Source of the DNA: a virus
Virus record (IMG/VR): IMGVR_UViG_3300035698_012408
Length of the DNA stretch: 64,000 nt
Strand: one strand, 5' to 3'
This document shows positions 9,925 through 64,000 of this stretch, in pieces. A model generated the notes under the pieces. That model searched no databases and was not told where the DNA came from. It saw nothing but the letters and a program-made list of their open reading frames with translations. A program made the translations under genes and the position numbers. Position 1 is the stretch's first letter, and every line of letters begins with the position of its first letter.

Positions 9925-9943
9925 AAATCTCCCGTCCCTGGAG

Positions 9944-10672: not shown

Positions 10673-10688
10673 CTATTCAGTTCTCCGA

Positions 10689-39347: not shown

Positions 39348-42008
39348 CTACGCTCCGCCGGGCTTGCCGATCAGTTTCTCAAGACCCTGATCAGGCTGAG
39401 CCGCACTGAAGCCAGTGAGCGGCGGCTTGTTGGGAGTAGGCGGTGGTGTGGTCATCCCCGGAGGCTTGGGTGTCAGGGCCGCAGCGCTGGCTCCCAGGCC
39501 GCCCGGCTTCGCAGTCGGGGGCATCGGAGGTGTTGCGGTCGAAGGGCCGCCAGGAGGCGGTACGGGCGCCCCTACGGTTGGCTTCGGTGGCGTACCTGTT
39601 GGTGCCGCCCCGGATAACAGATCCATCGCACCACCGAGTGCCGGAGGCTTACCACCGCCGAACATCGGTTGCGGTGTCGCACCACCTTGATAGTGCTGGG
39701 CCATCTGCGACCCGAACGACGGAGATGCCGGAGGAGCTGCTGGACCGGCGGGTGCTCGCGACATGCCCGGAGTCGGGGCGGCTCCAACCGCACCTGCTCC
39801 TGGAGTCGGAGCTCCACGCCTTGCCGCGGCACCGGGTGCCGTTGGCGTGGGTGGTCGATTCGCCTGGAAGGTCGGGGAGACCGGCTCACGCCCTGGGGCC
39901 TGGATCGGTTGAACTTCGTCCGGCAGCCCGGCGATCGGCGACGATTGTCGCACAGGTCCGGCAGGTGCTGGCTTCACTTCATCAGGCAGCGAGGCTATCT
40001 GGGGAGCTGGCTGGCGTTGCGGGCCGACCGGTGCCGGCCTCACTTCGCCGGGCAGCGATGCCATCGGAGCCGCAGGCTTCCGCTGCGGGGCTCCACCCGT
40101 CGTGGAGGGCTGCGTCATGGAAGCTGCCCCGGCCATGCCTGCTGGTGACGGCAGCGGCGTGGCTGAGTTCACCATGCTCCCTGCCTGCCCCAGTGGGCTT
40201 GGCGCCGATGCTGCGTTCGCAATGTTACCTGCCTGCCCCAGCGTGCCAGGGGCCTTCGCCGACGACACGATGTTACCAGCCTGCCCCATCTGACTCGGAG
40301 CCTTCGCAGCGTTCACGATGTTACCAGCCTGCCCCAGCGTGTTAGGAGCCGCCCCACCCAGCAATGCTGCCAGCGGCGGAGCCGGCTGTTGTGCCGCGGG
40401 TGGCTTGACTGGCGCCGGTCCGCCGCTCGACGCGATCGTTGGAGTCGGCCCTGTGATATTCGACGGCTTGGAAGCAGCCCCGGACCCTGGGCTCGTGGTC
40501 CCAGAGCCCGAGCCTGCAACCTGGGAGGGACGCGACCGGCCTCGGCCACCACGGCCTCCGCCTTTCCCTCGTCCCTTACCTCGTCGGGTAGACTTGGCTG
40601 TGGCGGTCGGCGACGGAGCAGCTGGTGATCCGATGCCAGCCGCTGCTGCTCTCGCAGCCGCTGCTGACTGATATGCTCCACCCATCTGATCCGGGGACGG
40701 CTTGTTCCCCACTGTCCACGGTGGTGTGGCGCCATCGTCGTTCAAGATGTCTCGATCGCGTGTGGCTTGATTGCGGGCGTCATGTGCCCTGACCAACGCT
40801 TCGTACTGCGGCGTGCCCGGTTTGGGAGCCGCCAGCTTCTCAAAGAGCTGTGAGGAGCCACACAGCGACTTAGCTGGTGCTTGCGAGCTGTGAGACGTTT
40901 CACAGCCGCTTATCTTCTCACGGAGCTGTGAGGCGTTTAACAGCGTCGAAGCAACGAACACGGTGCTGTCAGAGCTCTCACAGCTTCCTTGGCTCGCTTG
41001 CTTGTCTCGCATCGTGCTCAGGAGCCTCTCGCCGTCTCGGCCAGTGGTCATGCCCAACGATGTCAGCAGACCCATCACGCCCTCGGTCGGCAGAGTTGGG
41101 TGCTGCGAGGCTACGACTTCACGCAGTTCGCTCTCCACAGTCTTGTCCTGTGACCACGAAGCCACCTTGAAACCCTTGGCCACGCCCGTAGCGTGGTTGC
41201 CGTCGATTGTATTATTCACGGGATCGAGCCCTCCGTTAGAGTCAATGGGGTTAGCCGCGATGGCACTGCCAGCACCAGGAAACGACGGAGCTTTCTGGCC
41301 ACCTGCCGGTAGTCCTATCTGCATCGGGCCGAAGCCCGCCATCTGGGGCTTACCACTCGGTGGTTGCAGGAACTGTTGCATTCCTGCCATCGCCTGTGGC
41401 ATAGCAAATGACGACGATTGTGGCGACTGCATATTTGGCGACATTGGAGGCTGCATACCAGGAACTGCCGCTGTCTTGTCGCGGCCCTCCAACTTGGAGC
41501 CGTCGGGGAGCAGGAATGGGAAAAAGTCACGGATGACCCCTGCTGCTTTAAGTCGTGTGCTATCAAGGATTTGCCGCTTATTGGGGCTCGCAGGCACGCT
41601 GGCTAAGTTGCTGTCAGAGCTCTCACAGCCCGTCACAGCAGATAAACCAGGACGTCCCAAGGCACCCAAATCAATAAAACCTGCCTGTTTTGGCACCCTA
41701 TTGGGGTAAACCGTGCCCAAAACACCCCCTGAATCCACTTTACCCCGCGCCGCGTATAACGTACTTAGGTGTCGTGTTTTGGCAAGTTCGCTGTGAGCTT
41801 TCTTCTCTTTCCGCTCCCTGTCGTCCTTTTTATTTGGCAATTTGTCGTGTTTCGTTCTCGCGAAATTGCTCGCGAGATTGCTGGCGCCAGGTGGCTTGAT
41901 TGACGACGCAACAGACTTTACAATGGCTGGCGGGTGGGATGGCTCTGCCTTCTGGTGAGCTCGCACCATGCCAAACAACCGCTGCTGTGGTTTAGACTTT
42001 GCTGGCAT
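39348..42008 (-). CDS. 886-aa low-complexity Pro/Ala/Gly-rich protein with a DUF3008-like N-terminus
   Basis: The N-terminus MPAKSKPQQRLFGMV...FARTKHDKLPNKK resembles DUF3008 (recalled from memory). It contains several in-frame tandem repeats and the embedded inverted-repeat array. Confidence 0.5.
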   Translation of the reverse strand: MPAKSKPQQRLFGMVRAHQKAEPSHPPAIVKSVASSIKPPGASNLASNFARTKHDKLPNKKDDRERKEKKAHSELAKTRHLSTLYAARGKVDSGGVLGTVYPNRVPKQAGFIDLGALGRPGLSAVTGCESSDSNLASVPASPNKRQILDSTRLKAAGVIRDFFPFLLPDGSKLEGRDKTAAVPGMQPPMSPNMQSPQSSSFAMPQAMAGMQQFLQPPSGKPQMAGFGPMQIGLPAGGQKAPSFPGAGSAIAANPIDSNGGLDPVNNTIDGNHATGVAKGFKVASWSQDKTVESELREVVASQHPTLPTEGVMGLLTSLGMTTGRDGERLLSTMRDKQASQGSCESSDSTVFVASTLLNASQLREKISGCETSHSSQAPAKSLCGSSQLFEKLAAPKPGTPQYEALVRAHDARNQATRDRDILNDDGATPPWTVGNKPSPDQMGGAYQSAAAARAAAAGIGSPAAPSPTATAKSTRRGKGRGKGGGRGGRGRSRPSQVAGSGSGTTSPGSGAASKPSNITGPTPTIASSGGPAPVKPPAAQQPAPPLAALLGGAAPNTLGQAGNIVNAAKAPSQMGQAGNIVSSAKAPGTLGQAGNIANAASAPSPLGQAGSMVNSATPLPSPAGMAGAASMTQPSTTGGAPQRKPAAPMASLPGEVRPAPVGPQRQPAPQIASLPDEVKPAPAGPVRQSSPIAGLPDEVQPIQAPGREPVSPTFQANRPPTPTAPGAAARRGAPTPGAGAVGAAPTPGMSRAPAGPAAPPASPSFGSQMAQHYQGGATPQPMFGGGKPPALGGAMDLLSGAAPTGTPPKPTVGAPVPPPGGPSTATPPMPPTAKPGGLGASAAALTPKPPGMTTPPPTPNKPPLTGFSAAQPDQGLEKLIGKPGGA
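40174..40365 (-). repeat. 4 x 48-bp in-frame tandem repeat
   Basis: Anchors atgttacc at 40222, 40270 and 40318, and atgctccc at 40174. It encodes GQAGNIV..AKAP... x4. Confidence 0.85.
40847..40984. repeat. phased array of four 20-bp inverted repeats GCTGT-N10-ACAGC
   Basis: Elements at 40847-40866, 40887-40906, 40925-40944 and 40965-40984, with spacing 40/38/40 bp. Arms are 6-7 of 8 complementary. Confidence 0.85.
41610..41629. repeat. fifth copy of the 20-bp inverted repeat (identical to 40965-40984)
   Basis: gctgtcagagctctcacagc is repeated exactly. Confidence 0.85.
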
Positions 42009-42109
42009 CCTAGTACCTTTCATCGTGAACTGGTATGATCGCTGCCTGCTTGTTATCATTAGTGTAGCCTGATGACCGTCACTATTGCAACCCCGTAAGG
42101 AAGAGATTC

Positions 42110-45177: not shown

Positions 45178-45828
45178 TTAGAACTCCGTCTTGATAACTC
45201 GCCTGAACCTCTTGTTCTTGTTGCAGGCCGCTCGAACGTCCAGCAGCACCTGCTTCAGAGGCTGATTTCCATCCACGACCGGATAACCTAAGTTCTCAGC
45301 AGCCTCCAGGTAGGCCTCGCGAAGCCGCGTCCGCCACTCAAGGTCTCGAACCTCGAATCGATCGAGCGGCATCCCGCCACGCCCATCTGTATTACGCTTG
45401 CGGTGGATTCCCGTCTCCGGGTCGACGTCCAACACGATGTAGACGTCGGGATTGACGCCAACGAGCCTGTCGTGCAGCCACCGAATGAGGCTTTTGTCCG
45501 CGTACTCAAGCATACCCTGGTACACATAAGTTGACAAGACCCAGCGGTCTGCGACCACGTCACCACCGTCATGCAGATGCGCGATGATCCCTGGGGTAAG
45601 CGAGTGACGTGCTGTCGTGTAGAGCAGAACCTGCTCTGTCGGTGTAAGATCAAGGTCTTGATCTAAGATAATCGGCCGTAGCCGTTTTCCGAGCTCTGAT
45701 GTCCCGGGGTCATGTACCAGTTCGACACGAGGCCGCTGGTAAGCTGTCAGACGACGCTTGAGCGCCTCTGCCACAGTTGTTTTGCCGCATCCGTCGATTC
45801 CTTCCACACAAATAAACAAACCACGCAT
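45178..45828 (-). CDS. tmk: thymidylate kinase
   Basis: P-loop FICVEGIDGCGKTT, the DRW(V)LSTYVYQG region, and LID-like RKRNTDGRGG. SD GGAGGA. Confidence 0.85.
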   Translation of the reverse strand: MRGLFICVEGIDGCGKTTVAEALKRRLTAYQRPRVELVHDPGTSELGKRLRPIILDQDLDLTPTEQVLLYTTARHSLTPGIIAHLHDGGDVVADRWVLSTYVYQGMLEYADKSLIRWLHDRLVGVNPDVYIVLDVDPETGIHRKRNTDGRGGMPLDRFEVRDLEWRTRLREAYLEAAENLGYPVVDGNQPLKQVLLDVRAACNKNKRFRRVIKTEF

Positions 45829-45865
45829 TGGATCGATCCTCCATTTCCAATCCCCCCTTGACTAA

Positions 45866-45914
45866 TCAAACAAAAAGCAATCGGCTGACACCAATCCCTT
45901 GGCAGTCAGCCGAT
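45866..45914 (-). terminator. rho-independent terminator
   Basis: Perfect 11-bp stem aatcggctgac/gtcagccgatt with an inner ccaa/ttgg extension, followed on the minus strand by gcUUUUUgUUUg. Confidence 0.8.
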
Positions 45915-45989
45915 TACGCCACTCATTGGCAAAGAGCCGGTAGCATCATGCTACCTTCGTCAGTCCCTTGACGGAGTCCTCCCAGCCAG

Positions 45990-46448
45990 TCAGGCCGGCA
46001 GTGTCGATGGAGGCTGCGTGGCAGGGTCATCCCCAGCACACTCAGGCGCCTCCGATTTATCACTCTCCTCCACAGCACACGGCTGCGAAGCGTCGCAATG
46101 ATCACATTCATCATCGCACGTGTCGAGTGGCGGGTCTTCCGTACCTTCTTCCGCCTTGTCGCAGCTGCACGCCGTCTCGGGCAGCGAGTTAATCGCATCA
46201 GCTGCGGCGGGTGTCGCAACCTCGGCCGGTGGTGCTGGGGAGCTCAGAGGGGGTGCCGGGTTTTCCGCCATCGCTTCTACCCGGAGAATTGCCCGGTGCT
46301 CCTGCCCGTCCGCGTCCCGCACTGTCAGTTTGATGTGATCACCACAACCTGAGGCCGCTACGATATGCGAGCCATCAGGTTGACTGACCCCGGCGATGAT
46401 ACCCTCCGCAATTGATAAATTGGTGAGGGCGATAAACAATCCTTGCAT
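45990..46448 (-). CDS. hypothetical protein with an acidic Cys-containing C-terminus
   Basis: ATG 46448 after AAGGAG, with a TAATG overlap to the upstream stop. Confidence 0.45.
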   Translation of the reverse strand: MQGLFIALTNLSIAEGIIAGVSQPDGSHIVAASGCGDHIKLTVRDADGQEHRAILRVEAMAENPAPPLSSPAPPAEVATPAAADAINSLPETACSCDKAEEGTEDPPLDTCDDECDHCDASQPCAVEESDKSEAPECAGDDPATQPPSTLPA

Positions 46449-46945
46449 TAACCTACTCCTTGTGTACAAATAACCTTGGCCACGTCGTGAAAATAGATGA
46501 GCGCCTTGGCACCGTCACTGAGCGTGAGGTACACTCCCTGCTCTTCATGGGGCTGGCCGGGGCCTTGATAGATGCCGTCCCAATGATTGTTGGCACGATC
46601 CGTCGTGCGGTAACGTAATCCCACTACCATGTTAGATATTGAGATAATCCGCTGGTCATGCGGAGGTGAGTCGTCGCCGCGAACTCGGAAAGAAATGAGT
46701 TCGCCGGCGTCGAACATCGCTTCGATGAGCGGTTCGCCCTTGTCTAAAAGGCCGTTTACCAAACCGAGCGAACCAACCGCAAAGTCTACTGATGGGTTGT
46801 CTACGATGGGTACCACGATAATGGTCTCGTGCTGAGCCAGCTGCTCATTGCACCCATGCCTCGCCTCGATAAGCCGCTGCATCGCTTGCCAGTCACGACG
46901 CACTGCGTCATTTAGTATCTCCACAACTTTCGATGCTTTGACCAT
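46448..46945 (-). CDS. hypothetical protein
   Basis: ATG ORF in the array. Confidence 0.45.
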   Translation of the reverse strand: MVKASKVVEILNDAVRRDWQAMQRLIEARHGCNEQLAQHETIIVVPIVDNPSVDFAVGSLGLVNGLLDKGEPLIEAMFDAGELISFRVRGDDSPPHDQRIISISNMVVGLRYRTTDRANNHWDGIYQGPGQPHEEQGVYLTLSDGAKALIYFHDVAKVICTQGVG

Positions 46946-47276
46946 CGGGCGTATCCCCCTGCTTGCTGGCGTGTGTATCCCTGGCTGCTTCAGCCCTGTG
47001 ATGAACGGCTGCTCTTCGTGACGCCGCTTCCGTTGTGGCCTGGGTGTAGAGTTCCTCAGTCCCTAAGGTCTGAAGATGTTCGGCGATGGCCTTCGATTGC
47101 TTGTTTAAGATAGCAATCGTCGCCGGTCCTTCTTCGGAGACAGAAATGATGTTGTCTTTGTCGACCTCTTGAGGCTCGATCATAAGACTTGCTACGGTAC
47201 CATCCGAGTACATGACACGTGCCAGAAGACTGACCGTGGCCACTTTAGGTTTGGTATTTACTGCTGATTCAGCCAT
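46908..47276 (-). CDS. hypothetical protein
   Basis: ATG after GGAGAGGA. Confidence 0.45.
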   Translation of the reverse strand: MAESAVNTKPKVATVSLLARVMYSDGTVASLMIEPQEVDKDNIISVSEEGPATIAILNKQSKAIAEHLQTLGTEELYTQATTEAASRRAAVHHRAEAARDTHASKQGDTPDGQSIESCGDTK

Positions 47277-47321
47277 TCATTCCTCTCCGTTTGATACTTA
47301 GATATTACATGCAGCAGGTGT

Positions 47322-48443
47322 CTACGTCAATAGTTCTTCGGCAGCTTTCTGTAATTCCTCCGCTAAAACTGCTCGAACCGTCGTAAAATCCCTGACGCCG
47401 GTGCCATAGGTCGTCATACCGGCGATGAAACGATCGAGGACAAACGCCACGTCACCGCCGTAGCTATTCATCAGCTCCCGTGTGGCCAGCGTGAACTCAT
47501 ATTGGGCGCTATGCTGCGATTGCTCCACTGAACTGGCAGCTGCCCGCTGTAATGCTCTTGCCGACTCTTCGTTGATACCGTGCAACGCTGTCAGTGCGGC
47601 CATGCCATTATCCGAGGTGGCATCCACAGGGCGTCCCAACCGTGGAACCTCCGGTGACACCTCCGGTGACAGCCCCAACGCCTCCAGCAGCGATCGGGAT
47701 GATGCAGCTTGACCCGCCTGGGCGTCATTTATCAGACTCCTAACCTCTGCGGCTGCTTCTGCCTGTCGCTCGGTGTCTGGTGACGCCTGTAAAGCGCCAA
47801 CCCAATTGTCCGCAAAGTTGAGGGCTGCGTCTGACCCGGGGATGTTTGAACGCCGCAAGAGCTCAAACACCCGACCGTGGGAGTTGGGTGGTGCGAAGTT
47901 GCGAGCCTCTCTCGCCCTTGCCGCCTGCCGCACAGTCTTCGCTGCCGCATTTAGAGATGGTTCATGGCCACGCAGCACCTGAACGATAACATCCTGCGCC
48001 ACCTCGTGATCCTGCAACCCTGCCACCAACTCCGCTGCCTCTTCATACCTCGCTTCACGGCGTTCCGTCTCCAACCGGTGTGTTACCACCGCACGTTCCG
48101 CGGCCTCCCGCTCACGCACTATGTTATTGGCTACACGCTCCTCTTCTCGCTGTCTCGCCAAGGTCACGTACGCTTCCACCGTCTCCACAACGTGCAGCAT
48201 CGTGGGCGGGTTGCCGCGTCTCGGCATTATATGCCCTTGAAGACGAAACTCTTCAATATTGGCAATGGCGTCAGCTAGTCGCGCACCAATATATTCGTTG
48301 GCCATGTGGTCATCGTTAATATCGGCCCACGGCAGCTCCGCCAAAAATGCCTCGGCCTGAGCCTCCGACGTTACGTCTGAAAGCTCAACCCGAAACATGA
48401 TTTGACGCTCTGCGCGGTCATTATCATCACTGTTGTGGCTCAT
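47322..48443 (-). CDS. hypothetical helical protein
   Basis: ATG ORF of 373 aa. Confidence 0.45.
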   Translation of the reverse strand: MSHNSDDNDRAERQIMFRVELSDVTSEAQAEAFLAELPWADINDDHMANEYIGARLADAIANIEEFRLQGHIMPRRGNPPTMLHVVETVEAYVTLARQREEERVANNIVREREAAERAVVTHRLETERREARYEEAAELVAGLQDHEVAQDVIVQVLRGHEPSLNAAAKTVRQAARAREARNFAPPNSHGRVFELLRRSNIPGSDAALNFADNWVGALQASPDTERQAEAAAEVRSLINDAQAGQAASSRSLLEALGLSPEVSPEVPRLGRPVDATSDNGMAALTALHGINEESARALQRAAASSVEQSQHSAQYEFTLATRELMNSYGGDVAFVLDRFIAGMTTYGTGVRDFTTVRAVLAEELQKAAEELLT

Positions 48444-48807
48444 TCATCCCCCAGGTTGGAGTCGCCACCGTGCTGCCCTTGCCGCCGCGTGGTCGCTTGT
48501 CTGGCGTAACCGCCATACTGCCGTCGTTGCCGCCCACGCCCGACATGCCCGTGTCAACGTCACAGAACGTCAACGCCGTCCCATCCTGGAACCGCAGGCC
48601 GAGGTTACTGCCGAGGAAATCCAACGCGATCGGCGCGTTCTCGGTAAACAGCTCACGAGCCTTCGCGATGAAGTCGCTAGCCATCAGGATCTGCCCTGGC
48701 TTCTCTTCAGCCAGCTTCTTCATGACAAAATCAAACACGTCGCTGTACACGCCTTCCGTCGCCGGTGCGTTGATAGGGATGCCAGCGTCTGTGGGGTCAA
48801 TACTCAT
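48427..48807 (-). CDS. hypothetical protein
   Basis: ATG 48807 lies 5 nt after AAGGAGG. Confidence 0.45.
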   Translation of the reverse strand: MSIDPTDAGIPINAPATEGVYSDVFDFVMKKLAEEKPGQILMASDFIAKARELFTENAPIALDFLGSNLGLRFQDGTALTFCDVDTGMSGVGGNDGSMAVTPDKRPRGGKGSTVATPTWGMNEPQQ

Positions 48808-49153
48808 CAGAACCTCCTTCAATTACAATGGGTCGCAAAACTTTATGGTACTCGAAACCGTCCAGCTCCTGCTGGATAACGGCATGCACCACATCAATGT
48901 CTGCGTTCGTGCTGCGATCCTTCACGTTCAAGCGAAAGACGCCGGGTGAGTCACAGACCACGGAAACCTCTTCCACGTATTTCCCTACATTATGCGTCAT
49001 GTCCACGCTACGCACTGCACGAATGATGGCCCGTGCCATCTCCGTAATTGCCCTGGTAGCTACGACGTCACGCCCTGCTGCAATATTATTCATCGCATGC
49101 GCTGTGTCTTCGTCAGATGGCCCATCTACTTCTGGATCATACTCTTCGCTCAT
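48797..49153 (-). CDS. hypothetical protein
   Basis: ATG after GAGGTGG, with an ATGA overlap. Confidence 0.45.
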   Translation of the reverse strand: MSEEYDPEVDGPSDEDTAHAMNNIAAGRDVVATRAITEMARAIIRAVRSVDMTHNVGKYVEEVSVVCDSPGVFRLNVKDRSTNADIDVVHAVIQQELDGFEYHKVLRPIVIEGGSDEY

Positions 49154-50202
49154 TTTTCCACCTCAATATCATCTAACTGAATAACGCGATGCTCACGCTC
49201 CACCGGCAATTTGCTGTCTCGTATACTTATCTCGCCATGTGGCTCGGGATCGAAGAACAGCTCCGCCCCGTTATGCACTACCAACCATCTAATCAGCATG
49301 GTGCCAGGGTCCATGCTCTGCACCAACACGAGCTGATCAGAAATCGGGTAACGCATGCGAACGCTGTATCGTTTATCCGTCACACTGGCAGCTTGTGCGA
49401 AGTTCATCGTGAAGTCGAACTCGCCCAGCGACACTGGCTCATCGTGCAGCCGCATGACAGCAGTGTGTAACGCCTGTAGCACGCATTGGAGCCCAAAATC
49501 GTGTGTCTGCATATTCTGCTGCTGCGCGAACAACACCGTTGACGTAAATGCCGCCTTGGTACTGCTTGGCAACCGCATCCCGTGCGTCTCATGCCCTCTC
49601 GCGAAGTTGGCGGTATTGCCTGACCAATGTCTTGGGATATTACTACGCAACTGGGACGGGTCCATGCCGGTCATGCCGGTAGGTCCGTACCCGGAAGGTC
49701 CGTACCCGGAAGCACCCATAGGGCGATCGTAACCTGAACCACCAGCAGCCGCACCCGGGGAATCAGTACCAGACGAACTATCTCCATGCTCAAATGACCA
49801 GTCCTCAGCATCGGAGTCAAGGTGGTGTGGTCTAGCCTCTTCCGCAGCAGGCACACCGACAGGCCCAGGCTCGCCTACCTCGCCGGTCGGACAGCCTTCA
49901 GGTCCCGAGGGCTCACCCGCTGCCCTGTCGCGTAACGCGTCCACCGTTGCACTCACCGCGTCGTTGATTTCCGTCATTTGTGACTCCACACCTGTCATCC
50001 TATCCGCTAACTCATCCGACCTCTGATGCCGCTGCCGCTGCTCCTCTCGTAAATTATCTACCTCTCGCGATCGCGTCTCTATATCTGCCAAATCTGCCAA
50101 CGCCGCATGACTACGCCGTCGCTGTATGCGTATCCGCAACCAGTGATACACGATGAATGCACCGATTACCCATAGACACAGTAAAAATGACGTCAAACTC
50201 AC
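49150..50202 (-). CDS. N-terminally anchored membrane protein with a coiled coil and a Gly/Tyr/Pro-rich linker
   Basis: GTG start. TM helix SFLLCLWVIGAFIVYHWL. It is the first gene after the tubulin terminator. Confidence 0.45.
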   Translation of the reverse strand: MSLTSFLLCLWVIGAFIVYHWLRIRIQRRRSHAALADLADIETRSREVDNLREEQRQRHQRSDELADRMTGVESQMTEINDAVSATVDALRDRAAGEPSGPEGCPTGEVGEPGPVGVPAAEEARPHHLDSDAEDWSFEHGDSSSGTDSPGAAAGGSGYDRPMGASGYGPSGYGPTGMTGMDPSQLRSNIPRHWSGNTANFARGHETHGMRLPSSTKAAFTSTVLFAQQQNMQTHDFGLQCVLQALHTAVMRLHDEPVSLGEFDFTMNFAQAASVTDKRYSVRMRYPISDQLVLVQSMDPGTMLIRWLVVHNGAELFFDPEPHGEISIRDSKLPVEREHRVIQLDDIEVEK

Positions 50203-50220
50203 TACATTCTCCCGCTACAC

Positions 50221-50258
50221 GAAAAAAGGCGGCCGGGCGCTAAGCCTCAGCCGCCTTT
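50221..50258 (-). terminator. rho-independent terminator after the tubulin-like gene
   Basis: 9-bp stem aaaggcggc/gccgccuuu followed by U6 on the minus strand. Confidence 0.8.
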
Positions 50259-50291
50259 CCCTGGCGTCCGATTCATGTTTGATTATCTGAA

Positions 50292-51455
50292 TTATACACC
50301 AAGGAAGTCTGCGACGCTATCCCGGGTCTCCCCGGCTTTCACCGCAAGCTCCTGAAGACGTTCCAACGGCATCGGCAAGTTCCCCACCATTGCGAGAATC
50401 TTGATGCCGTCGCCCCCGCTGGCCGGGTAGACGCCTGGGAACACTGCGGAATCGGCCGGAGTAAGGATACGATTCATCATCTCGGTGCCGTGGTCCAGCA
50501 CGCCAACCGTGATAGGCTCCGGCCCGGACCAAGCTGCGCCACTCACGACGTAGATGAGCCCGGCGACGTTGCCCTGGGTGAGATCGATCGTAGCCAACAC
50601 ATTCCGGCGAAGCTGATCACGGATGGGCGTACTGACGTCGCTCGGCTCCGCCCACTTCGTGATATTGCAAGCTGCAAAGGCCACAATTCCACTGTCCATG
50701 ATCTTGCTGAAATCGGCCGGATCGAATGTCGTACCACCCACATCCTCGCTCTCCGTGCCGGCGAGCCGGTTGAAGGTATGGAGGATCTGAGCCGTACTCT
50801 GGTTAGATGCCGGTTTCTCTTGTGGTACTGGCACCTTGGCACCATAGAGCGTTTTGAACTTCTCGTTGTCGATGAAGATCACAGGGCTCACCTTGAGCTT
50901 GTTCAGCACCTTCGCCGAGTGGAGAATGTTCTTTGCGCTACGCTGGCCTTCGGAGTCCTTTGGCATGGCCATGATGACACCAACACGCGGAGGTCGCTTC
51001 TTCTCCTGCATGTAGCGCTTGGCTACCTGGACCACCTTAGCGAACGCCCCGGCACCCGTACCGCCCGCCCCAGAGAGGCAGACAAACACGTAATCCGGGT
51101 CCTCGCCCCAGCAGCGCTGGAAGAGATCATAGAGATCCTCGTCCTTATCCGCTACCAGTCGAGCCGCCGTGTGCGGATCTTTACCTGCACCCCGCGCCTG
51201 CCCCACATCGAGCTTGGCGGTGTCCGGGAACGTCTTCAGCTCGGCCAAGTCGGCAATCGCCGTGTTGACCGCACAGACTCGGGTGTACCCGATTTCCTGA
51301 AACGTCTTGGCTATCCGCCCGCCAGCTTGTCCGACACCCACAAACGCGAATTTGTAAGCTACCGGATGATCAAACTTGTCGGCGATAGTCATCCCCGTAG
51401 GGCTCTCAGGAACCTCTGGTAGGTCCCCAATGTTGAGATGGATGTCATCACTCAT
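50292..51455 (-). CDS. tubulin/FtsZ-superfamily GTPase, TubZ/PhuZ-like
   Basis: T1 loop FVGVGQAGGRIA. T4 loop SGAGGTGAG matches the tubulin signature [SAG]GGTG[SA]G. AVNTA, GAGKDP and VIFIDNE are collinear with the TubZ segments AVNFA, GAARTP and VIVNDN. Confidence 0.75.
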   Translation of the reverse strand: MSDDIHLNIGDLPEVPESPTGMTIADKFDHPVAYKFAFVGVGQAGGRIAKTFQEIGYTRVCAVNTAIADLAELKTFPDTAKLDVGQARGAGKDPHTAARLVADKDEDLYDLFQRCWGEDPDYVFVCLSGAGGTGAGAFAKVVQVAKRYMQEKKRPPRVGVIMAMPKDSEGQRSAKNILHSAKVLNKLKVSPVIFIDNEKFKTLYGAKVPVPQEKPASNQSTAQILHTFNRLAGTESEDVGGTTFDPADFSKIMDSGIVAFAACNITKWAEPSDVSTPIRDQLRRNVLATIDLTQGNVAGLIYVVSGAAWSGPEPITVGVLDHGTEMMNRILTPADSAVFPGVYPASGGDGIKILAMVGNLPMPLERLQELAVKAGETRDSVADFLGV

Positions 51456-51475
51456 AATATCACTGGACTCCCTGG

Positions 51476-52018
51476 TTACTCCGGGACCGATGCGATCTGG
51501 GTAAGGTCAAACCCGTCGTCCTCGGCACCAGCATTTTCATCCTGAACGTCGTCGGCTGCCATCTTGTTGAGCTCTACGACGACCTCATTGTACAGAGGCA
51601 GATTCGCCGATTGCAGCTCGACCAGAGCTGTATTGTAATCATCCGCACCCATTGATGCAAGGCTTTCCGCCGTGACGCGAGCCTGCGAAGGCCTCTCCGA
51701 GATGGTGGAATCGCCGAGTTGTAGCTCGGCAGTGCCGGCCTGCGCCGGCGCGGGGTCCTGCGTGGCAGGTCTCGCGACGGTTGCCGCAACCTCGGCCGTC
51801 ACGACCGGATCGATGACAATCGCCGGCTCCGGCAACGGCTCCGGTGTCGGTGACGGTGGAGCAACCACAGCCGCCGCAACAGGCTCCTTGGGAAAATGAT
51901 TCGCGACAGGCAACGCCCTGGGTTTCGCACCCGCGACGCCGACTGGCGTGAAATTCTTCTGTGAAGACGGTGGCGGCTCTCTGTCCCGCAGTCGCTTACG
52001 GTACTTGATTTGACTCAT
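51476..52018 (-). CDS. Pro/Ala-rich, acidic C-terminus protein directly upstream of the tubulin gene
   Basis: ATG after AAGGAG. It is largely low-complexity, with a short structured-looking C-terminal part. Confidence 0.45.
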   Translation of the reverse strand: MSQIKYRKRLRDREPPPSSQKNFTPVGVAGAKPRALPVANHFPKEPVAAAVVAPPSPTPEPLPEPAIVIDPVVTAEVAATVARPATQDPAPAQAGTAELQLGDSTISERPSQARVTAESLASMGADDYNTALVELQSANLPLYNEVVVELNKMAADDVQDENAGAEDDGFDLTQIASVPE

Positions 52019-52032
52019 CGCTAAATCTCCTT

Positions 52033-53085
52033 TTAAGCAAATATCCGTCGAATATTAGACCCAAAGGTCTCACGACGGAGGTGAAGGCCCTTCGACACGC
52101 TTTGCTGCAACGAATACAGCCGCTCCGTGTCTAAGGCGTCATTCCGAAATACATCATCCATGAGAGCATAATCAGGAGCAGCACAAGGCAACCCTATATT
52201 ATTCTTCTCTTCGGACGTGTCAACCAGAATCCCGTGAACACCGTTCACAAACATCTCGGACATCGGCTGACAGTTAAATGTCACAACAGGTGTCCCCATT
52301 GTCACCGATAACAGCCCTACCATACAAGTGCTTTCCCAGTGTGTTGGCCAGAAAGTTACATCATGCTGACGGAAGAGCAGCGGCCGGGACGCTGGATGCA
52401 CCCCCTTATATAATGAAAGTCGACCCGGGAATTGCTTCTTCAATTGCTTCAGTAAGCGCTTCCCAGGCGACGCAATTGTTGACGAATTATAAACCACGCT
52501 GAGCGAGGCTTTCGGACATCCCTCTAAGGCTCGTCCGGCCACTTCCAGGGCTGTCAATTCTACACGCCTCGCCACGCCGTCGTATATCGGCATGAGTATC
52601 TTTGGTGCGGTCGGCTGGTAGTCCTGCGGCTTCTTGCAGATTGGCAAACCCACGTCCCAAGGAACCACAACCACGTTATCCAGTTTCCATTGATAGCCGA
52701 GAAACTGTGCCGCCGCCATCGTTGGCGCGATCACCATGTCAGCTGCCTGTAAGGCTGCCCGGTCAGCTACCCGCGACTCCATGCTCAGCTCATGCCACAG
52801 CACAAAAATACATGTGCGACGCTGCTGTTTCTTCGCATACTTGACTTGCTGCGGGTGCGGGATACTCGTCCACAAGACGATGTCGCACTGTTGCAGCCAC
52901 TTCGTAAATTTAAGGTCACGGCTTCGCCGAACCTGTGCATCCCACTTGTTCGACACGCGACGCGGTGTGTCAGTCATTGTTAATATCGACACGTCATGCC
53001 CATGTGCGACAGCCGAATCCGCAATGCGTAATCCTGCATAAGTCGCTTCATGAAAACAGTAACGGGTACAGATGCCTAGATTCAC
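52033..53085 (-). CDS. GT-B glycosyltransferase (GT1/GT4-like)
   Basis: ESTCMVGLLSVTMGTPVVTFNCQPMSEMFVNGVHGILVD matches the E..lEA.a.G.PVv....E.v..g..G pattern. GTG start. Confidence 0.55.
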   Translation of the reverse strand: MNLGICTRYCFHEATYAGLRIADSAVAHGHDVSILTMTDTPRRVSNKWDAQVRRSRDLKFTKWLQQCDIVLWTSIPHPQQVKYAKKQQRRTCIFVLWHELSMESRVADRAALQAADMVIAPTMAAAQFLGYQWKLDNVVVVPWDVGLPICKKPQDYQPTAPKILMPIYDGVARRVELTALEVAGRALEGCPKASLSVVYNSSTIASPGKRLLKQLKKQFPGRLSLYKGVHPASRPLLFRQHDVTFWPTHWESTCMVGLLSVTMGTPVVTFNCQPMSEMFVNGVHGILVDTSEEKNNIGLPCAAPDYALMDDVFRNDALDTERLYSLQQSVSKGLHLRRETFGSNIRRIFA

Positions 53086-53088
53086 AGC

Positions 53089-53925
53089 TCAACCCTTGAA
53101 AGCCTTCACACTATCTGCCATAGCGTACGGGGGATTGACATAAAAACCAATGCGACCCTTGGAGCCCCGATGCCACGTGCGTCGAGGACGTACCAATGAA
53201 ACCACACCAAAATGCTGACACACAAACGGCACCAATAACCCTGCCCAGAGTCCGTTCCGCGATGCTGCTTTCTTCAATTGATCATCAAACTTCTGTTTTG
53301 TATTATGCTTGCGCCTGAAGAAATTATCAAGCGTAGTAAACCCTTCCCGTGTTACGTACAAACACTGCGCGGTGATCCCGCCCTCGCGCACACGCTGCTT
53401 ATCGCAGTTCTTTATTTTCTTGTTCAGATGCAGTCCCGAGAGGATTGCCAGCGGTTTAGCGAATAATAACTCATCCGCCGCCACCTGCGTCAAGCGTTCG
53501 TACCAATCCTCTTTGAATATCACATCATCTTGTAGCAAGATGACCCCAGGAGCATCAGGATATTTGTCGAACATGCGACAGACAGCTTGGCAGGACGCAT
53601 TGACCACGCCAGCCGGCTTCTTCCCTAGCCGCACGACACCGACACGTCCACGCAATCCTACAGGTGGCTTCGCACTTTTGTTGATTACGTCAAGCCCCAA
53701 CTTCTTCCACATGGCATGTTGTGGCCACTTGTGTTCCGACCCTGTCCCTCGGGCGGTAGTGTAGTACGTTCGGGCCTCCGTGGTGTCGCTGGCATCATCA
53801 AACACAGTCAGCGGCACAGCTTCAGGAAGCCGTGTCGCCGACAATGATCGTAAGGTCACGTCAAGGTAATGAATACGGTTACGTGATATGATGCCAATCG
53901 GCACCAGTTTACCAACTTCTGCCAA
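53089..53925 (-). CDS. GT-A glycosyltransferase (GT2-like)
   Basis: IGIISRNRIHYLDVTLRSL....PLTVFDDASD and ILLQDDVIF. TTG start 7 nt after AGGAG. Confidence 0.5.
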   Translation of the reverse strand: MAEVGKLVPIGIISRNRIHYLDVTLRSLSATRLPEAVPLTVFDDASDTTEARTYYTTARGTGSEHKWPQHAMWKKLGLDVINKSAKPPVGLRGRVGVVRLGKKPAGVVNASCQAVCRMFDKYPDAPGVILLQDDVIFKEDWYERLTQVAADELLFAKPLAILSGLHLNKKIKNCDKQRVREGGITAQCLYVTREGFTTLDNFFRRKHNTKQKFDDQLKKAASRNGLWAGLLVPFVCQHFGVVSLVRPRRTWHRGSKGRIGFYVNPPYAMADSVKAFKG

Positions 53926-53935
53926 TTCTCTGCTC

Positions 53936-56053
53936 CTAGTTTAAGTCGATAAACCTGCTCTGCTTACCGAATTCCCGTTGAATGTCCGCTTCCTTCCTTC
54001 CGTGATACCACGCCATGAGCTGCTGCTCCGCGGAGGAGACGTCTCTTGGCGTGTTCTCCTCCAGCACTCGCAACACGGGATTGTCGACCGCCGCGGCCTG
54101 CTTCCCATACTGCTGCTGCAACACCATCTCTCGCCCTTGCAGTGACGCGTCTCGTTTGATCTCGTCCATCTGGGACTTGACCAACGCATGAATCGTCGGA
54201 TCTTCCTGCTTGAGCTGAATGAGGAAGGAATCCTTCTGTGACTCTGGCATGGCTATGGCCTGCTGGGCCAACGTGGACGCCGTGGTATTCATCTCCTCGA
54301 CAGACTGTGGCTTGTTAGGCAGCAATGGCTGCCCGGCCATGAACGCATACACGGCACCCTGCGGGCCTTGCGGCTGACCCATAGCGCCCATCGGCGGAGC
54401 AGGCTGCCCACCCGGGGCAGGTGCGGCTGGAGCGCCACCGCCCGGCATCGCGCCGGGCATTCCCTGCATGGCTGGCATCTGCCCACCCGCGGCTGCCGGA
54501 TCTCCACCAGGAGGTGGTTGAGGCAGTGCCATCTCATCCATGACGGCTGACTGCTCCATCTCTTCCTGCATATCCTGCGTGGCCTCGGCCGTGATCCGTT
54601 CTTCTTCCAGCTTGCGTCGCTCTTCTTCGGCGTACTCGATGCCGACGCTGGCGAGCCCGGTGGTTCGACTGACCTGTCCACCCATCATGAGCTGGAGCTT
54701 GGCCATCTGACGATTCAAGTCGTCCGCATGGGTGACCCGCTGCAATCGAGCGTTCACAGGTTCCCACGACATGACTTGACTGATCTTATCAACGAGCTTG
54801 TTGAGGAAGCGATTCAGATTATGTACGAGGTGACTCCAGTTGGCCTCAAACAGCCGCAGCGCGGCTGGAGCCGACTGAACGCTCAATGAGCCCTTGTAGA
54901 GCTCCACAGGGATACCGATGGACGTCAGCAGCGTATCCATGCCCAATTCCAGCAAGTCCTTCGGAGCGAGCTGTGTAGCGTCACCACCGAGGGCCTGATA
55001 ATCGATCGGGAACGGCAAGATGTTCCAGCGAGCTGGATCTCGTCGCCGCTGCTTGAGCATGTTATTCACACGCCCTGTGAACGACCCGAGATTGATGCTT
55101 AGGACTGGGTCATTGACCTCGCCACCCTGGCCTGGGCGTGGCTGCGGAGTGATCACGCGGAACGGGATCACGTAATCCAAGGCGATCGCTTCATTGTAGC
55201 GATGAAGCACCTGGACGTACCACGCCTGTCGGAAGTTGGCCAGCACACGCGAAATACCCCAGCCGCGATTTCTCACGCCGGCCAAGGCTTGTTCTTTCAT
55301 GTGGTAGACAACGTCGTTGTCAAACAGCAAGGCCTGATTATTCTGCACGGCCTCGACGATCTCCCAACTGGCCCGCTCCAGATGGAACAGATGACCCTTG
55401 CGCACCAGATTCTGGTAATCCTCGGGGATTCGCCAGATGAACGACGCGTCGTCCGTGTGCGGGTCCCACAGCACGTCTATCTCGTGTGGGTTCCATCGTT
55501 TGATCTTGATCTGGCCATTCTCGCCAGATCGACGATCGATATGCTCCCAGGCCCCTGTGTAATCACACTCGGGACATTTCGCGTTGAACTGATACCCAGT
55601 CCACGAGAAATTGAACATGTCCGTGTTGTAAACTCGCTTCAGCGGTAACTCCAGCCCGCAGTCGGGGCAGGCAAGATACCTGCGGAATGGGACCAGCAGA
55701 CTGGTGAAGCTGTTACCGTATACCAGATAGTCCAGAGCGACGGTGGCCAGCACGTCCTTGATACCCAGGGTATCGTTGAGGAAATCCTCGTACTTCTTCT
55801 TCTCCTCGCGGCCGATCCGTTCATCTCCGTCACCCGCTGACACGATCTCAATGTCGGTCAGGAAGTATGAGATGATCCGAGCAAGCGCAGAACGATATGG
55901 CCCATTGGCCATAGCGATATACTCACACCAGCGTAATGCGTCCCTGATAGTCGTGGGCATGGCCGTGGAGGCCACATCACAAAACGGGTCAGGAAAACGA
56001 TCGTCAGCGTGCGTATTACTCCCTTGTGTGGGAGAACTAAATAGGTTGGCCAT
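53936..56053 (-). CDS. portal (head-tail connector) protein, podovirus T7-type-like, with a zinc-ribbon insertion
   Basis: The segments DYLVYGNSFTSLLVPF and RGWGISRVLANFRQAWYVQVLHRYNEAIALDYVIPFRVITPQ parallel T7 gp8 QLVVAGNVLLYLP and ESYGRSYIEEYLGDLRSLENLQEAIVK...GLVNP. The C-terminus is Gly/Met/Pro/Ala/Gln-rich. The assignment is from memory, not a search. Confidence 0.55.
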   Translation of the reverse strand: MANLFSSPTQGSNTHADDRFPDPFCDVASTAMPTTIRDALRWCEYIAMANGPYRSALARIISYFLTDIEIVSAGDGDERIGREEKKKYEDFLNDTLGIKDVLATVALDYLVYGNSFTSLLVPFRRYLACPDCGLELPLKRVYNTDMFNFSWTGYQFNAKCPECDYTGAWEHIDRRSGENGQIKIKRWNPHEIDVLWDPHTDDASFIWRIPEDYQNLVRKGHLFHLERASWEIVEAVQNNQALLFDNDVVYHMKEQALAGVRNRGWGISRVLANFRQAWYVQVLHRYNEAIALDYVIPFRVITPQPRPGQGGEVNDPVLSINLGSFTGRVNNMLKQRRRDPARWNILPFPIDYQALGGDATQLAPKDLLELGMDTLLTSIGIPVELYKGSLSVQSAPAALRLFEANWSHLVHNLNRFLNKLVDKISQVMSWEPVNARLQRVTHADDLNRQMAKLQLMMGGQVSRTTGLASVGIEYAEEERRKLEEERITAEATQDMQEEMEQSAVMDEMALPQPPPGGDPAAAGGQMPAMQGMPGAMPGGGAPAAPAPGGQPAPPMGAMGQPQGPQGAVYAFMAGQPLLPNKPQSVEEMNTTASTLAQQAIAMPESQKDSFLIQLKQEDPTIHALVKSQMDEIKRDASLQGREMVLQQQYGKQAAAVDNPVLRVLEENTPRDVSSAEQQLMAWYHGRKEADIQREFGKQSRFIDLN

Positions 56054-56075
56054 CCCTAGCTCCTGGATATATTTT

Positions 56076-56089
56076 GGTACTTAGGAACC
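56076..56089. promoter_or_regulatory. copy 6 of the 14-nt motif (one mismatch: GGTTCCTAAGTACC on the minus strand)
   Basis: 22 nt upstream of the portal ATG. Its internal TAA is the stop codon of the upstream gene. Confidence 0.55.
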
Positions 56090-56257
56090 AGATGGGTCGA
56101 CGCGTCCCGCCACTTGATCCGCCAAGCGATGTGTCACGTCGTCATCCAGATTCTGGGTCTGTGAAGCTGCGGTAGCCTGCTTTTCTCCTGGTCGTTGGAC
56201 ATTCCGATCTTCGACATCGGGTGTCTGACCCGGCTCTACAACGGCTCGCTTTTCCAT
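56081..56257 (-). CDS. small hypothetical protein
   Basis: ATG 56257 after GGAGGG. Confidence 0.4.
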   Translation of the reverse strand: MEKRAVVEPGQTPDVEDRNVQRPGEKQATAASQTQNLDDDVTHRLADQVAGRVDPSGS

Positions 56258-56277
56258 CGGCGTACCCTCCTTCTGGG

Positions 56278-57405
56278 TTACTCTGGCGGCAGCGCACCGG
56301 TTTCCGTGATCATCAGAGTACAATGCTCCAAATGACCAACGGCGTACTGCACACCCGTTGTTTGTACCCGATAAACCTCCTCCGTACCAGTGACATTCAT
56401 GGCCAACGGTGGAGGATTATCACTTTCGGCCACCGGCGGGAACCACCGAGGCCCCTGGTATCGATTGTCGTAAACGAGAATGATAAATCCAGGCTGCACG
56501 ATCACGTCATGGTAATACGCCCTGTTCGTGCCATACCCTTCCATCTCGAAGACGACCTCGATCGTCGGCTGCGCCGGCCCTGCCTGAGCGCGAGAACCAG
56601 CTGGGGCTTCGTCACGCAGATCGATTGCCCTGAGCTCACGAGTGGGTTCGGGTGCTGGCGGCTGCTGGTTAAAGGCTGCCAGAGGAGCTACACGGCGCTG
56701 CGGGGCTGCGTGGGCCGCGGTTTGAAGCGTTGGAGCAGGAATCTCCTGCTGTACCGCAGGTTGCGGTGCAAACTGTTGTACAGCCACAGGTTGCTGTGCC
56801 TGCGGCGGCATCGGTTGAACGGGTTGTGCAACATACGGCTGCACGGGCTGCTGTGATTGATGGTGCATAACCGGTTGCTGTGCAACAGGTTGAGCCATCT
56901 CAAGCGGCTGCTCTTGCAACGCCGGGCCTGCCCCCGCGACAGTTGCGGCGATACCGTGCATGGTTGCCGCCCCTCGCAGTCGCAACGTCTCGATGCTCGT
57001 CGGTTCCGGTGTGACGTCGCGGGCCATAGCGATCCCAGCGGCCACAGTCTGCTGATTGATGTCGCCAAGCCGGACGCGTGAGCTCTGCCCGGCAATATGC
57101 GGATCAATCACGACCTCGATGTCGCTGGTTACGTGTGGGGACGTGCCCTGAGGGATGCCTCCCATCGTGGAACGTGGGATAATGGTACCATTCAACCCTG
57201 CGGGTCCGGGTCGCATTACGCCTGTCACAGGCGTGCCAGCAGCCGTACGCTCACCCGCGGCTGGGCGGTACCCATATTGCGTCTCAGGCGTAACAGGTCG
57301 GCCGGTGTCACGCTGGGGTAGAGGCTGTGCATCTCCATAGCCTCCGGTCTCTCCGTCGAAAAACGGGTCCAGCTGCACAATCCTATTGCGTTCTGTCATT
57401 ATCAT
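56278..57405 (-). CDS. hypothetical protein with a Gln/Pro-rich centre
   Basis: ATG ORF of 375 aa. It is the first gene after a strong terminator. Confidence 0.45.
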   Translation of the reverse strand: MIMTERNRIVQLDPFFDGETGGYGDAQPLPQRDTGRPVTPETQYGYRPAAGERTAAGTPVTGVMRPGPAGLNGTIIPRSTMGGIPQGTSPHVTSDIEVVIDPHIAGQSSRVRLGDINQQTVAAGIAMARDVTPEPTSIETLRLRGAATMHGIAATVAGAGPALQEQPLEMAQPVAQQPVMHHQSQQPVQPYVAQPVQPMPPQAQQPVAVQQFAPQPAVQQEIPAPTLQTAAHAAPQRRVAPLAAFNQQPPAPEPTRELRAIDLRDEAPAGSRAQAGPAQPTIEVVFEMEGYGTNRAYYHDVIVQPGFIILVYDNRYQGPRWFPPVAESDNPPPLAMNVTGTEEVYRVQTTGVQYAVGHLEHCTLMITETGALPPE

Positions 57406-57499
57406 ACCTTTCTGCGATTACACTGCTTATCTGCTCTGACGGGTAACAACTATAGCTTACCCCGTCAGCCACGAAAGGGCAACAGGGCTTCCAATAGCT

Positions 57500-57544
57500 A
57501 AAAAAAAGTCTACGACCGACCCGGGGTCACCCCCGAGCCGATCG
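57500..57544 (-). terminator. rho-independent terminator
   Basis: A 14-bp stem that is fully paired only on the minus-strand RNA (three G-U pairs) and a 4-nt loop. After a 5-nt spacer comes U8. Confidence 0.8.
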
Positions 57545-57552
57545 CACACGTA

Positions 57553-57876
57553 TCATTCCCATGAATCGGGAGCTAGTCCTGGGACCACTCCAGCATCCAC
57601 AAGTGTCAATCTCGGAACGCGGAAAAACAACACACCAACGCTGTCAAGCCCGTGTGAAAAATTACACAGTGCATCGGCCTGGGCTGGTTGAACCAGCACA
57701 AACCCACGGGCGTGGGCCTCGGCATGCGTATCGAAGTCCTCGACAACACAGGCTACCAGTGCCATTCGGCGACCGGGCCATCGCGGTAACACCCGCGGTT
57801 TGCCATCATACCGTGCGAGCCACGACTCTACCGGCTCGGCGCCGGTATTGAGTTCGTAGTTAGACGGTGACTTCAT
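57553..57876 (-). CDS. small hypothetical protein
   Basis: ATG 57876 after GAGGAG. It is the C-terminal part of track ORF 57553..58293. Confidence 0.4.
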   Translation of the reverse strand: MKSPSNYELNTGAEPVESWLARYDGKPRVLPRWPGRRMALVACVVEDFDTHAEAHARGFVLVQPAQADALCNFSHGLDSVGVLFFRVPRLTLVDAGVVPGLAPDSWE

Positions 57877-63816: not shown

Positions 63817-64000
63817 CTAACCACCTTGTGGTAAGGGTCCGTCGAGCGGATCGCCCAGCTTCGCCGCGTCAATACGGCGACGAGCTGCGACCGCGAACTT
63901 TTCAGATAACTCAAAACCAATATACTGCCGGTCGAGCTTCTTCGCTACCGCCAGCGTCGTACCAGATCCGGCCATCGGGTCCAGCACCACGTCACCGGGA
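63817..64000 (-). CDS. N6/N4 DNA methyltransferase, C-terminal fragment (continues beyond the window end)
   Basis: My own translation reads PGDVVLDPMAGSGTTLAVAKKLDRQYIGFELSEKFAVAARRRI. This is the AdoMet motif DPxxGSGTT of the N6_N4_Mtase family. Stop TAG at 63819..63817. Confidence 0.85.
   Translation of the reverse strand, partial: PGDVVLDPMAGSGTTLAVAKKLDRQYIGFELSEKFAVAARRRIDAAKLGDPLDGPLPQGG

Follow-up and report, generated by a model that had tools for sequence, protein, structure and literature searches.

Phage tubulins have so far been described in two settings: PhuZ forms the spindle for the chimallin nucleus, and the TubZRC systems segregate plasmid prophages. In FtsZ, TubZ and PhuZ alike, each subunit uses its T7 loop to trigger GTP hydrolysis in the one that follows. 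The tubulin gene described here lies in the IMG/VR virus record IMGVR_UViG_3300035698_012408, in a stretch of 64,000 nucleotides hereafter called the window. The window corresponds, in reverse complement, to about positions 87,432–151,431 of a metagenomic contig of 215,361 bp (ENA ERZ27316532 k141_715151), of which the window and ~8 kb of flank were read, ~72 kb of ~215 kb. Phage-encoded tubulins as such are already known; the claim made here is a moderate one, of an unstudied and widespread viral branch whose function is suggested by sequence, fold and gene context. The product is best explained, with a probability of about one half, as a GTP-driven cytomotive filament that would organise phage DNA and/or procapsids in lytic infection, analogous to PhuZ and without a chimallin compartment.

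50292..51455, minus strand: tubulin/FtsZ-superfamily GTPase of 387 amino acids (aa), recognised by Pfam PF00091, an AlphaFold2 model, Foldseek and invariant T1–T7 residues

The preliminary description, made from the letters alone, had called this product a tubulin GTPase from its GVGQAGG and SGAGGTGAG motifs, and the call holds. The T1 motif occupies residues 40–46 of the open reading frame (ORF) and the T4 signature residues 128–136, and the Pfam Tubulin family PF00091 matches the protein at E 3e-11 (44.4 bits, cut-off 33). A phmmer search of PDB sequences ranks TubZ-Bc/RepX first (4ei7, 4e-11), followed by CetZ (4b45, 3e-9) and many FtsZ. The AlphaFold2 model, calculated from an alignment of 41 homologues that reaches down to 25% identity, has a pLDDT (predicted local distance difference test) of 89.4 and a pTM (predicted template-modelling score) of 0.88. 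It shows the two-domain tubulin fold, with a nucleotide-binding domain, the core helix H7 and a C-terminal activation domain. Foldseek found 1068 matches to it in the PDB at E≤1e-3, the top 50 all being CetZ, TubZ or FtsZ; CetZ2, TubZ-Bt and TubZ-Bc lead, then FtsZ, with E ~1e-21, template-modelling (TM) scores up to 0.75–0.80 and 16–22% identity.

The columns that are invariant in the 41-homologue alignment are the nucleotide-contact positions: G40, G42 and G45 in T1, N64 and T65 in T2, G89 and G91 in T3, G131, G132, T133, G134 and G136 in T4, P165 in T5, D196 and N197 in T6, and N218 in H7. In the T7 stretch TFDxADF, which aligns with the RepX T7 loop 'hFDasEF', D245 is invariant and D248 is kept in at least 90% of the homologues. 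A missing tubulin/FtsZ fold or degenerate GTP contacts had been named as grounds for dropping the assignment; the fold is found by hidden Markov model (HMM), AlphaFold2 and Foldseek, and the contacts do not vary among the homologues. The gene thus encodes an intact tubulin/FtsZ-fold GTPase with intact GTP-binding loops T1–T6 and the T7 catalytic aspartates. It is a divergent, virus-specific member of the superfamily, equidistant from TubZ and from CetZ/FtsZ.

The protein ends ~25 residues beyond the last strand of the model. In the clade of the window tubulin, the extreme C-terminus is a conserved peptide, D-x-V-A-x-F-L-G-V, which is missing in more distant family members and recalls the D-I-P-x-F-L motif of FtsZ. 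Such a peptide could serve host takeover, an unlikely role in which the phage protein would disturb FtsZ-dependent division of the host or take its place, or remodel cell shape like CetZ, possibly by competing for FtsA/ZipA-type anchors. In structure the protein is as close to CetZ and FtsZ as to TubZ, and in BFVD and homologue searches the annotation pipelines label relatives 'cell division GTPase FtsZ'. However, identity to FtsZ is 16–18%, and the FtsZ equivalog model TIGR00065 scores the window protein at 35.8 bits, far below its cut-off of 295.2, which makes co-polymerisation with host FtsZ unlikely. The absence of the peptide from distant members also speaks against host takeover, as does the position of the gene, whose neighbours belong to packaging/head or DNA metabolism and not to early host takeover.

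The tubulin belongs to a large family. A word-indexed search returned 113 homologues, many on contigs of 205–229 kb, and a pattern scan of IMG/VR found >465 relatives, whose contigs cluster at 205–235 kb. An HMM search of 1.84 billion cluster representatives yielded, at E≤1e-30, 439 clusters at 50% identity. Each of the best 150 scores >250 bits with the family profile; the highest-scoring solved TubZ reaches 118 bits. The samples of the relatives are marine, freshwater and others. Among 50,697 GenBank phage records, no family member was detected by tblastn, whether the query was the window tubulin or a marine-clade protein, and a member of the L033 clade reached Bacillus phage G, the sole relative in these records. 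A megablast of 20 kb of the window against GenBank phages gave no match. No papers describing the family were found, in a literature coverage that was incomplete.

No family member was found in 185,579 bacterial and archaeal species (one genome each). The sole match there has 28% identity, is of a different family and lies in a cellular kinase/PP2C/VWA/integrase island. From this near-absence in cellular genomes the family appears to be essentially viral and not prophage-borne. Family scans detected no integrase, partition (Par) or Rep genes in the window. The tailed-phage setting proposed in the preliminary description is supported, and the host genome is that of an uncultured, apparently lytic tailed phage of ~215 kb. 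In a metagenome-assembled genome of Candidatus Zymogenaceae (L092, 6780–15918), this tubulin-like gene of 28% identity is found beside a HerA-like ATPase, a winged-helix protein, a protein kinase, a VWA protein, a PP2C phosphatase and an integrase; this looks like a mobile conflict/defence island rather than a phage.

Within the family, the stretch before T1 varies in length (median 41 aa; >80 aa in 50 of 248 members). An acidic-hydrophobic-proline 'DLP' motif is located ~29 residues before T1 in 133 of the 248, compared with 4% of control windows. Several members carry inteins, found in T1 (P0241), between GGG and TG of the signature (P0264, P0287, P0323) or just before T7 (P0257), and Pfam detected LAGLIDADG homing endonuclease domains in both intein members scanned (P0241, P0264). 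We know of no report of inteins in tubulin/FtsZ-family proteins. Inteins usually home into conserved, selected sites, and their insertion at T1, the T4 signature and before T7 suggests that the motifs of the family are under selection.

The gene had been taken for its own terminated unit. It is instead the last gene of a ~7.3-kb unit that contains the portal gene and lies between two terminators, in the order 375-aa gene, 80-aa ORF, portal, 278-aa gene, glycosyltransferase (GT), 180-aa gene, tubulin. Nearly all genes of the window are on the minus strand. The features surrounding the tubulin are the following:

57511..57546, minus strand: intrinsic terminator that closes the preceding unit and is the upstream boundary of this one (16-bp stem followed by U8, found by the scanner)
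56278..57405, minus strand: 375-aa conserved backbone gene of the lineage, first of the unit, whose homologues precede the portal in every relative examined, whether or not it has the tubulin
56081..56323, minus strand: small ORF directly upstream of the portal, 80 aa as listed and 58 aa by the source's gene caller, conserved in position and sequence in two relatives (L005, L096)
53936..56053, minus strand: portal, 705 aa (Foldseek; tblastn to Arash gp204)
53089..53925, minus strand: 278-aa protein, conserved only in the nearest relatives (50% identity in L005)
52033..53085, minus strand: GT4-type glycosyltransferase (Glycos_transf_1 and Glyco_trans_1_4, Pfam E 4e-8 and 2e-7, above cut-off; phrog_2170)
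51476..52018, minus strand: 180-aa protein, candidate adaptor, ending 20 nt before the tubulin start, with orthologues only in L005 and L007
50221..50258, minus strand: intrinsic terminator at the end of the unit (stem AAAGGCGGCUG...CGGCCGCCUUU, then a U-run)
49150..50202, minus strand: 350-aa protein, first gene of the next unit, described from its sequence, with homologues only in L005 and L007
48427..48822, minus strand: 131-aa protein that co-occurs with tubulin in four sublineages (homologues in L005, L007 and L008)

The gaps from the tubulin through the four genes upstream are 20, 14, 3 and 10 nt, no terminator was found between these genes in the terminator scan, and the next strong terminator upstream is only that at 57511–57546(−); because of this the tubulin is placed in the unit of the portal. 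The strong terminator reported earlier at 50221–50258(−) is real: the 96-nt region around it folds at −36.3 kcal/mol (z −3.0). The consensus terminator scanner misses it owing to its loop-length rule, and it is not conserved in relatives, being specific to the window genome. The upstream terminator folds at −36.8 kcal/mol (z −3.6), and none of 200 shuffled sequences was as stable. An inverted repeat, CTGACGGGGTA...TACCCGTCAG (57406–57470, minus strand), lies between this terminator and the first gene of the unit; it overlaps a TATAGT box and may act as an operator or, in the RNA, as a 5' hairpin.

The identity of the 705-aa neighbour as a true portal, 2.5 kb upstream of the tubulin as first described, is firm. 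Its AlphaFold2 model is of moderate quality (pLDDT 64), and the top 50 Foldseek matches in the PDB are all phage portals (best E 2e-7, TM 0.25–0.31 on the query). In tblastn it matches gp204 of Salmonella phage Arash, annotated as portal, with 27% identity (E 1e-56); gp204 has been found in virions by mass spectrometry (PMC10585845). Portal homologues number >1000 and are strongly conserved; those that tblastn detects among GenBank phages are four only, in Vibrio phages D69, D181 and D148 and in Arash. Kinship with Arash was considered and set aside, as the portal alone is common to both and 74 other window proteins have no tblastn match; a 1556-aa window protein was rejected as a counterpart of the 1525-aa RNA polymerase subunit of Arash.

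To place this arrangement, ORFs were called in 86 loci and then clustered. The tubulin tree used alongside is a crude neighbour-joining tree rooted on PhuZ. In the window clade the conserved backbone is 375-aa gene, small ORF, portal, 0–2 genes, GT, small variable ORF, tubulin. The portal and GT neighbourhood, described earlier as unlike either known system, is hence standard in the clade and no oddity of this copy, and the adjacency of TerL and portal recurs in two other clades. Across the lineage the identities of tubulin and portal are 78/71, 72/72, 60/50, 54/45 and 50/36%; since tubulin identity falls in step with portal identity, these values point to vertical inheritance of the tubulin within the window clade. 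The gene is nonetheless accessory, because some relatives with the same backbone lack it. A variable island at 45829–52032, reaching from the GT (52033..53085) to a thymidylate kinase (45178..45828), holds ten genes here, including the tubulin, and two small genes in the tubulin-less relatives L094–L096.

In a large marine and freshwater clade, whose tubulins are 35–39% identical to that of the window, the order is TerL, portal, tubulin. The portal of this clade is of another type, which matches those of SPbeta (YonE) and Bacillus phage Slash, and a probable capsid gene follows five genes further on. A separate clade has the order TerL, tubulin, portal. One or the other of these two orders is present in 38 of 83 loci of the two clades. 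A common origin of the two portal types found beside tubulin (A3 against A4) is unproven, with an hhalign probability of 8.5%. In other clades the tubulin adjoins GTP cyclohydrolase I, DNA ligase, SbcD-like exonuclease or helicase. In L033 and 13 similar IMG/VR loci (~8767–11107), GTP cyclohydrolase I and a conserved 178-aa protein precede the tubulin, and divergently transcribed genes follow it. What these contexts share is DNA handling and packaging rather than a fixed partner.

Organisation of DNA and/or procapsids is the most likely function because, in these lytic-type jumbo phages, the tubulin gene stands among genes for heads and packaging or for DNA metabolism. The protein would bind GTP and assemble head-to-tail into dynamic filaments, as expected if each active site is completed by the T7 loop of the adjoining subunit. 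It would be made together with head-assembly proteins, and in the infected cell its filaments would place or transport phage DNA and/or procapsids, with neither a chimallin nucleus nor TubR or a centromere involved. Coupling to cargo may proceed through short conserved peptides, namely the N-terminal 'DLP' motif and, in the window clade, the C-terminal D-x-V-A-x-F-L-G-V, and small proteins confined to single lineages, among them the 180-aa and 131-aa products, may join in it. The recurrent linkage to terminase and portal or to DNA-repair genes suggests what the cargo might be.

The same head genes allow for another, distinctly improbable role, in which the polymer would be a morphogenetic protein: a procapsid scaffold, a portal-organising centre or an internal body of the virion. 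Sharing a transcription unit with the portal would suit it, and the marine clades place the tubulin between the portal and the putative major capsid protein, the usual slot of a protease or scaffold; the 180-aa neighbour, furthermore, has a module like that of the portal C-terminus. Yet close relatives with the same head genes lack the tubulin, other clades place it among DNA-metabolism genes, and the conserved T7 hydrolysis loop points to dynamic filaments, not to a static scaffold. The remote relative in phage G was, besides, not detected in the virion proteome (PMC12484599).

Some results weigh against a cytomotive filament organising DNA or procapsids. The gene is dispensable: relatives with portals 57–58% identical, one of them on a 213-kb contig, lack it and have the order portal, GT, 258-aa gene, 110-aa gene, thymidylate kinase. 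As to the adaptor and cargo, no family-wide partner emerged: iterated HMM searches started from the 180-, 350-, 131-, 118- and 373-aa neighbours did not extend beyond the nearest relatives. The contexts differ from clade to clade, and the portal linkage may be no more than a permissive insertion site. A promoter scan matched no sigma-70-type promoter for the portal–tubulin unit. A search for chimallin-like shell proteins, proposed earlier as a check, gave no similarity in the window or the family loci; with ~72 kb of the 215-kb genome read, a shell or adaptor could be encoded elsewhere.

The gene directly upstream of the tubulin bears on a further alternative, a TubZRC-like type III partition of an extrachromosomal (plasmid-like or pseudolysogenic) phage genome. 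The 180-aa protein would then be a non-canonical TubR, and a set of palindromes in the window the centromere. A small ORF precedes the tubulin directly in most clades and in phage G, often overlapping the tubulin start, which mimics the order tubR–tubZ. These ORFs are not conserved between clades, and the 180-aa protein, described at the outset as unlike a winged-helix TubR, indeed has no match among the helix-turn-helix (HTH), winged-helix or TubR families of Pfam, NCBIfam and PHROGs, nor any other Pfam or NCBIfam match. It consists of a basic N-terminus, a Pro/Ala-rich linker, a helical module of ~50 aa and an acidic DDGFDL tail, and is mostly of low complexity.

The palindromes are five copies of a 20-bp sequence, GCTGTSAG-N5-TCACAGC, at 40847–40984 and 41610–41629 (11 strand-matches, 0.5 expected). 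Four are spaced 38–40 nt apart and the fifth lies 645 nt further on. This dyad array, earlier proposed for an interaction test with the tubulin, is real, but 9 kb separate it from the gene, and it falls within an ORF of 903 aa and low complexity (39348..42059, minus strand), in which it encodes GCESSDS-like peptides; there is no sign of a link to the tubulin. It was not seen in the orthologous region of L005, the sole close relative whose fetched locus covers that ORF, and was rejected as a centromere. Beside the operon (50000–57600) no tandem or iterated array was found, apart from a coding 15-nt repeat at 49676–49712. Partition draws on the fact that TubZ-Bc/RepX is the best sequence match among solved structures and that distant family members pass Pfam TubZ-like_C. 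Against it stand, in addition, the sharing of a unit with the portal and not with replication or maintenance genes, the apparent lack of a long TubR-binding C-terminal tail, and the absence from the 185,579 cellular genomes, among which plasmid prophages would be expected to show up. Taken together, partition is an improbable function for the window tubulin.

Under the preferred reading, a filament serving phage DNA and/or procapsids, the 180-aa protein is a candidate adaptor. Its residues ~108–159 resemble portal residues 583–637 (EEM..A..LAQQ...MPESQKDS.LI.LK..DPT.HALV). A portal HMM matches the 180-aa orthologues with E 1e-7 and 2e-6, and hhalign gives a probability of 54% (E 1.3e-4). This likeness to the C-terminal module of the portal is a lead and not proven homology. 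The only PHROG match of the protein is a weak one, to a head-tail adaptor family (E 0.006).

The remaining neighbours are poorly characterised. The 375-aa protein has no Pfam, NCBIfam, PHROG or PDB match. The tubulin had been described as next to glycosyltransferases; this is correct for the GT4-type gene at 52033..53085(−), but the adjacent 278-aa ORF has no family match (Pfam, PHROG, NCBIfam) and no detectable glycosyltransferase signature, leaving one such immediate neighbour only. The GT comes after the portal in all members of the lineage, including those without tubulin. One family member of 812 aa, P0320, has an N-terminal Glycos_transf_1 domain fused to the tubulin, an arrangement that echoes the order GT, small ORF, tubulin of the window clade; the fusion may be genuine or may be an error of gene calling. 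As a Rosetta stone for the window GT it is a hint only, since the two belong to the same Pfam family without significant pairwise similarity.

Downstream of the tubulin, the 350-aa product fits its earlier description as a membrane-anchored coiled-coil protein: it has an N-terminal hydrophobic segment (the membrane anchor), a basic stretch (SLTSFLLCLWVIGAFIVYHWLRIRIQRRR) and a charged, heptad-like helical stretch, and the remainder is a Gly/Pro-rich linker and a C-terminal globular part. It has no Pfam, PHROG or NCBIfam match. A homologue of the 131-aa protein directly follows the tubulin in L008, and none was found in the tubulin-less relatives L094–L096.

Few classical structural-gene families were recognised in the window, and the lineage is very poorly annotated. 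For TerL and the major capsid protein, 452-aa and 375-aa candidates have no Pfam, PHROG or PDB match. The window contains no tRNAs. It does contain four sulfotransferase-family genes, several glycosyltransferases, methyltransferases, and a papain-like and a trypsin-like peptidase. The ~8 kb beyond window position 64000 (L097) encode ThyX, a dUTPase/dCTP-deaminase (DCD) fusion, an N6/N4 methyltransferase and a GT. This gene content suggests DNA or surface modification.

Compared with the known tubulins, the PhuZ part of the original label 'TubZ/PhuZ-like' does not hold: TubZ-Bc/RepX, CetZ and archaeal FtsZ are the closest solved proteins, PhuZ is undetectable by tblastn, and PhuZ-type proteins reach a TM of only ~0.5. 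TubZ (TubZ-Bt of pBtoxis, TubZ-Bc/RepX of the pXO1-like type, and that of Clostridium phage c-st) has the same fold (TM up to 0.75), and RepX scores 118 bits with the family profile. The TubZ trait PF22453 (TubZ-like_C) is above cut-off in the distant members P0100, P0112, P0241 and L033, whereas for the window protein it was not reported at E≤0.1. The window tubulin has 17–18% identity to TubZ and appears to lack the long C-terminal tail with which TubZ binds TubR. Its locus, unlike TubZRC, has neither a TubR-type HTH protein nor adjacent tubC-like iterons and lies in a portal operon, and the family occurs on lytic-type jumbo phage genomes, with no member in the cellular genomes and plasmids that GTDB covers. 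The label that fits the family best is 'TubZ-like', with CetZ and archaeal FtsZ scoring nearly as high. Foldseek E-values for these are as good as for TubZ (CetZ2 4b45: E 2e-21, TMt 0.80) and their profile scores are 102–105 bits. They differ in identity (19–22%) and in context, which here is viral and not archaeal chromosomal.

PhuZ (201phi2-1 gp59, phiKZ gp39) is likewise a tubulin-superfamily GTPase of phages >200 kb, and the lytic-growth role proposed here is analogous. It is also accessory in its lineage (PMC10299810), as the tubulin is in the window clade. In sequence and structure the two are far apart: phiKZ PhuZ shows no similarity to the window or family loci in tblastn (E>1), PhuZ-type proteins in BFVD have TM 0.48–0.55 to the window tubulin in Foldseek, and PhuZ is not among the top 60 PDB profile matches of the family. 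The window tubulin lacks the acidic C-terminal tail of PhuZ, and phiKZ PhuZ is not beside a portal. The window portal matches no Chimalliviridae portal by tblastn, and neither msRNAP nor other Chimalliviridae core families were found in the window.

The closest cultured relative is gp138 of Bacillus phage G, a 'putative FtsZ-like cell division protein' that matches the family profile with an hhalign probability of 99.6% (E 1.5e-24). As in the family, a small ORF lies directly upstream of it, and its neighbourhood is one of nucleotide metabolism. It differs in belonging to a Firmicute megaphage of 498 kb, with 23–26% identity, and in not lying beside a portal. Among predicted viral proteins the best structural match is UniProt A0A6J5RW92 from an uncultured Caudovirales phage (E 5e-31, TMq 0.82; 452 aa, 24% identity), whose designation 'FtsZ Cell division GTPase' is an automatic name only; it probably belongs to the same viral family as the window tubulin.

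For tubulin evolution the family is new material, being equidistant from TubZ, CetZ and FtsZ, with variable N-terminal extensions and inteins in its GTPase motifs. If the window tubulin polymerises, many uncultured jumbo phages would organise infected cells by a cytoskeleton of their own and build no nucleus. More tentatively, it could represent a third, mechanistically distinct phage cytoskeleton of non-nucleus-forming jumbo phages, coupled to terminase and portal or to replicating DNA, with cargo attached not via a C-terminal tail but via the N-terminal 'DLP' motif, and via lineage-specific adaptors such as the 180-aa protein with its portal-like module. Tubulin-driven trafficking of procapsids or portals would, in that case, have evolved independently of the chimallin nucleus and be widespread in environmental phages. 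The window tubulin thus belongs to a large third, unstudied group, with its nearest cultured relative at ~25% identity, and fits neither the PhuZ nor the TubZRC paradigm.

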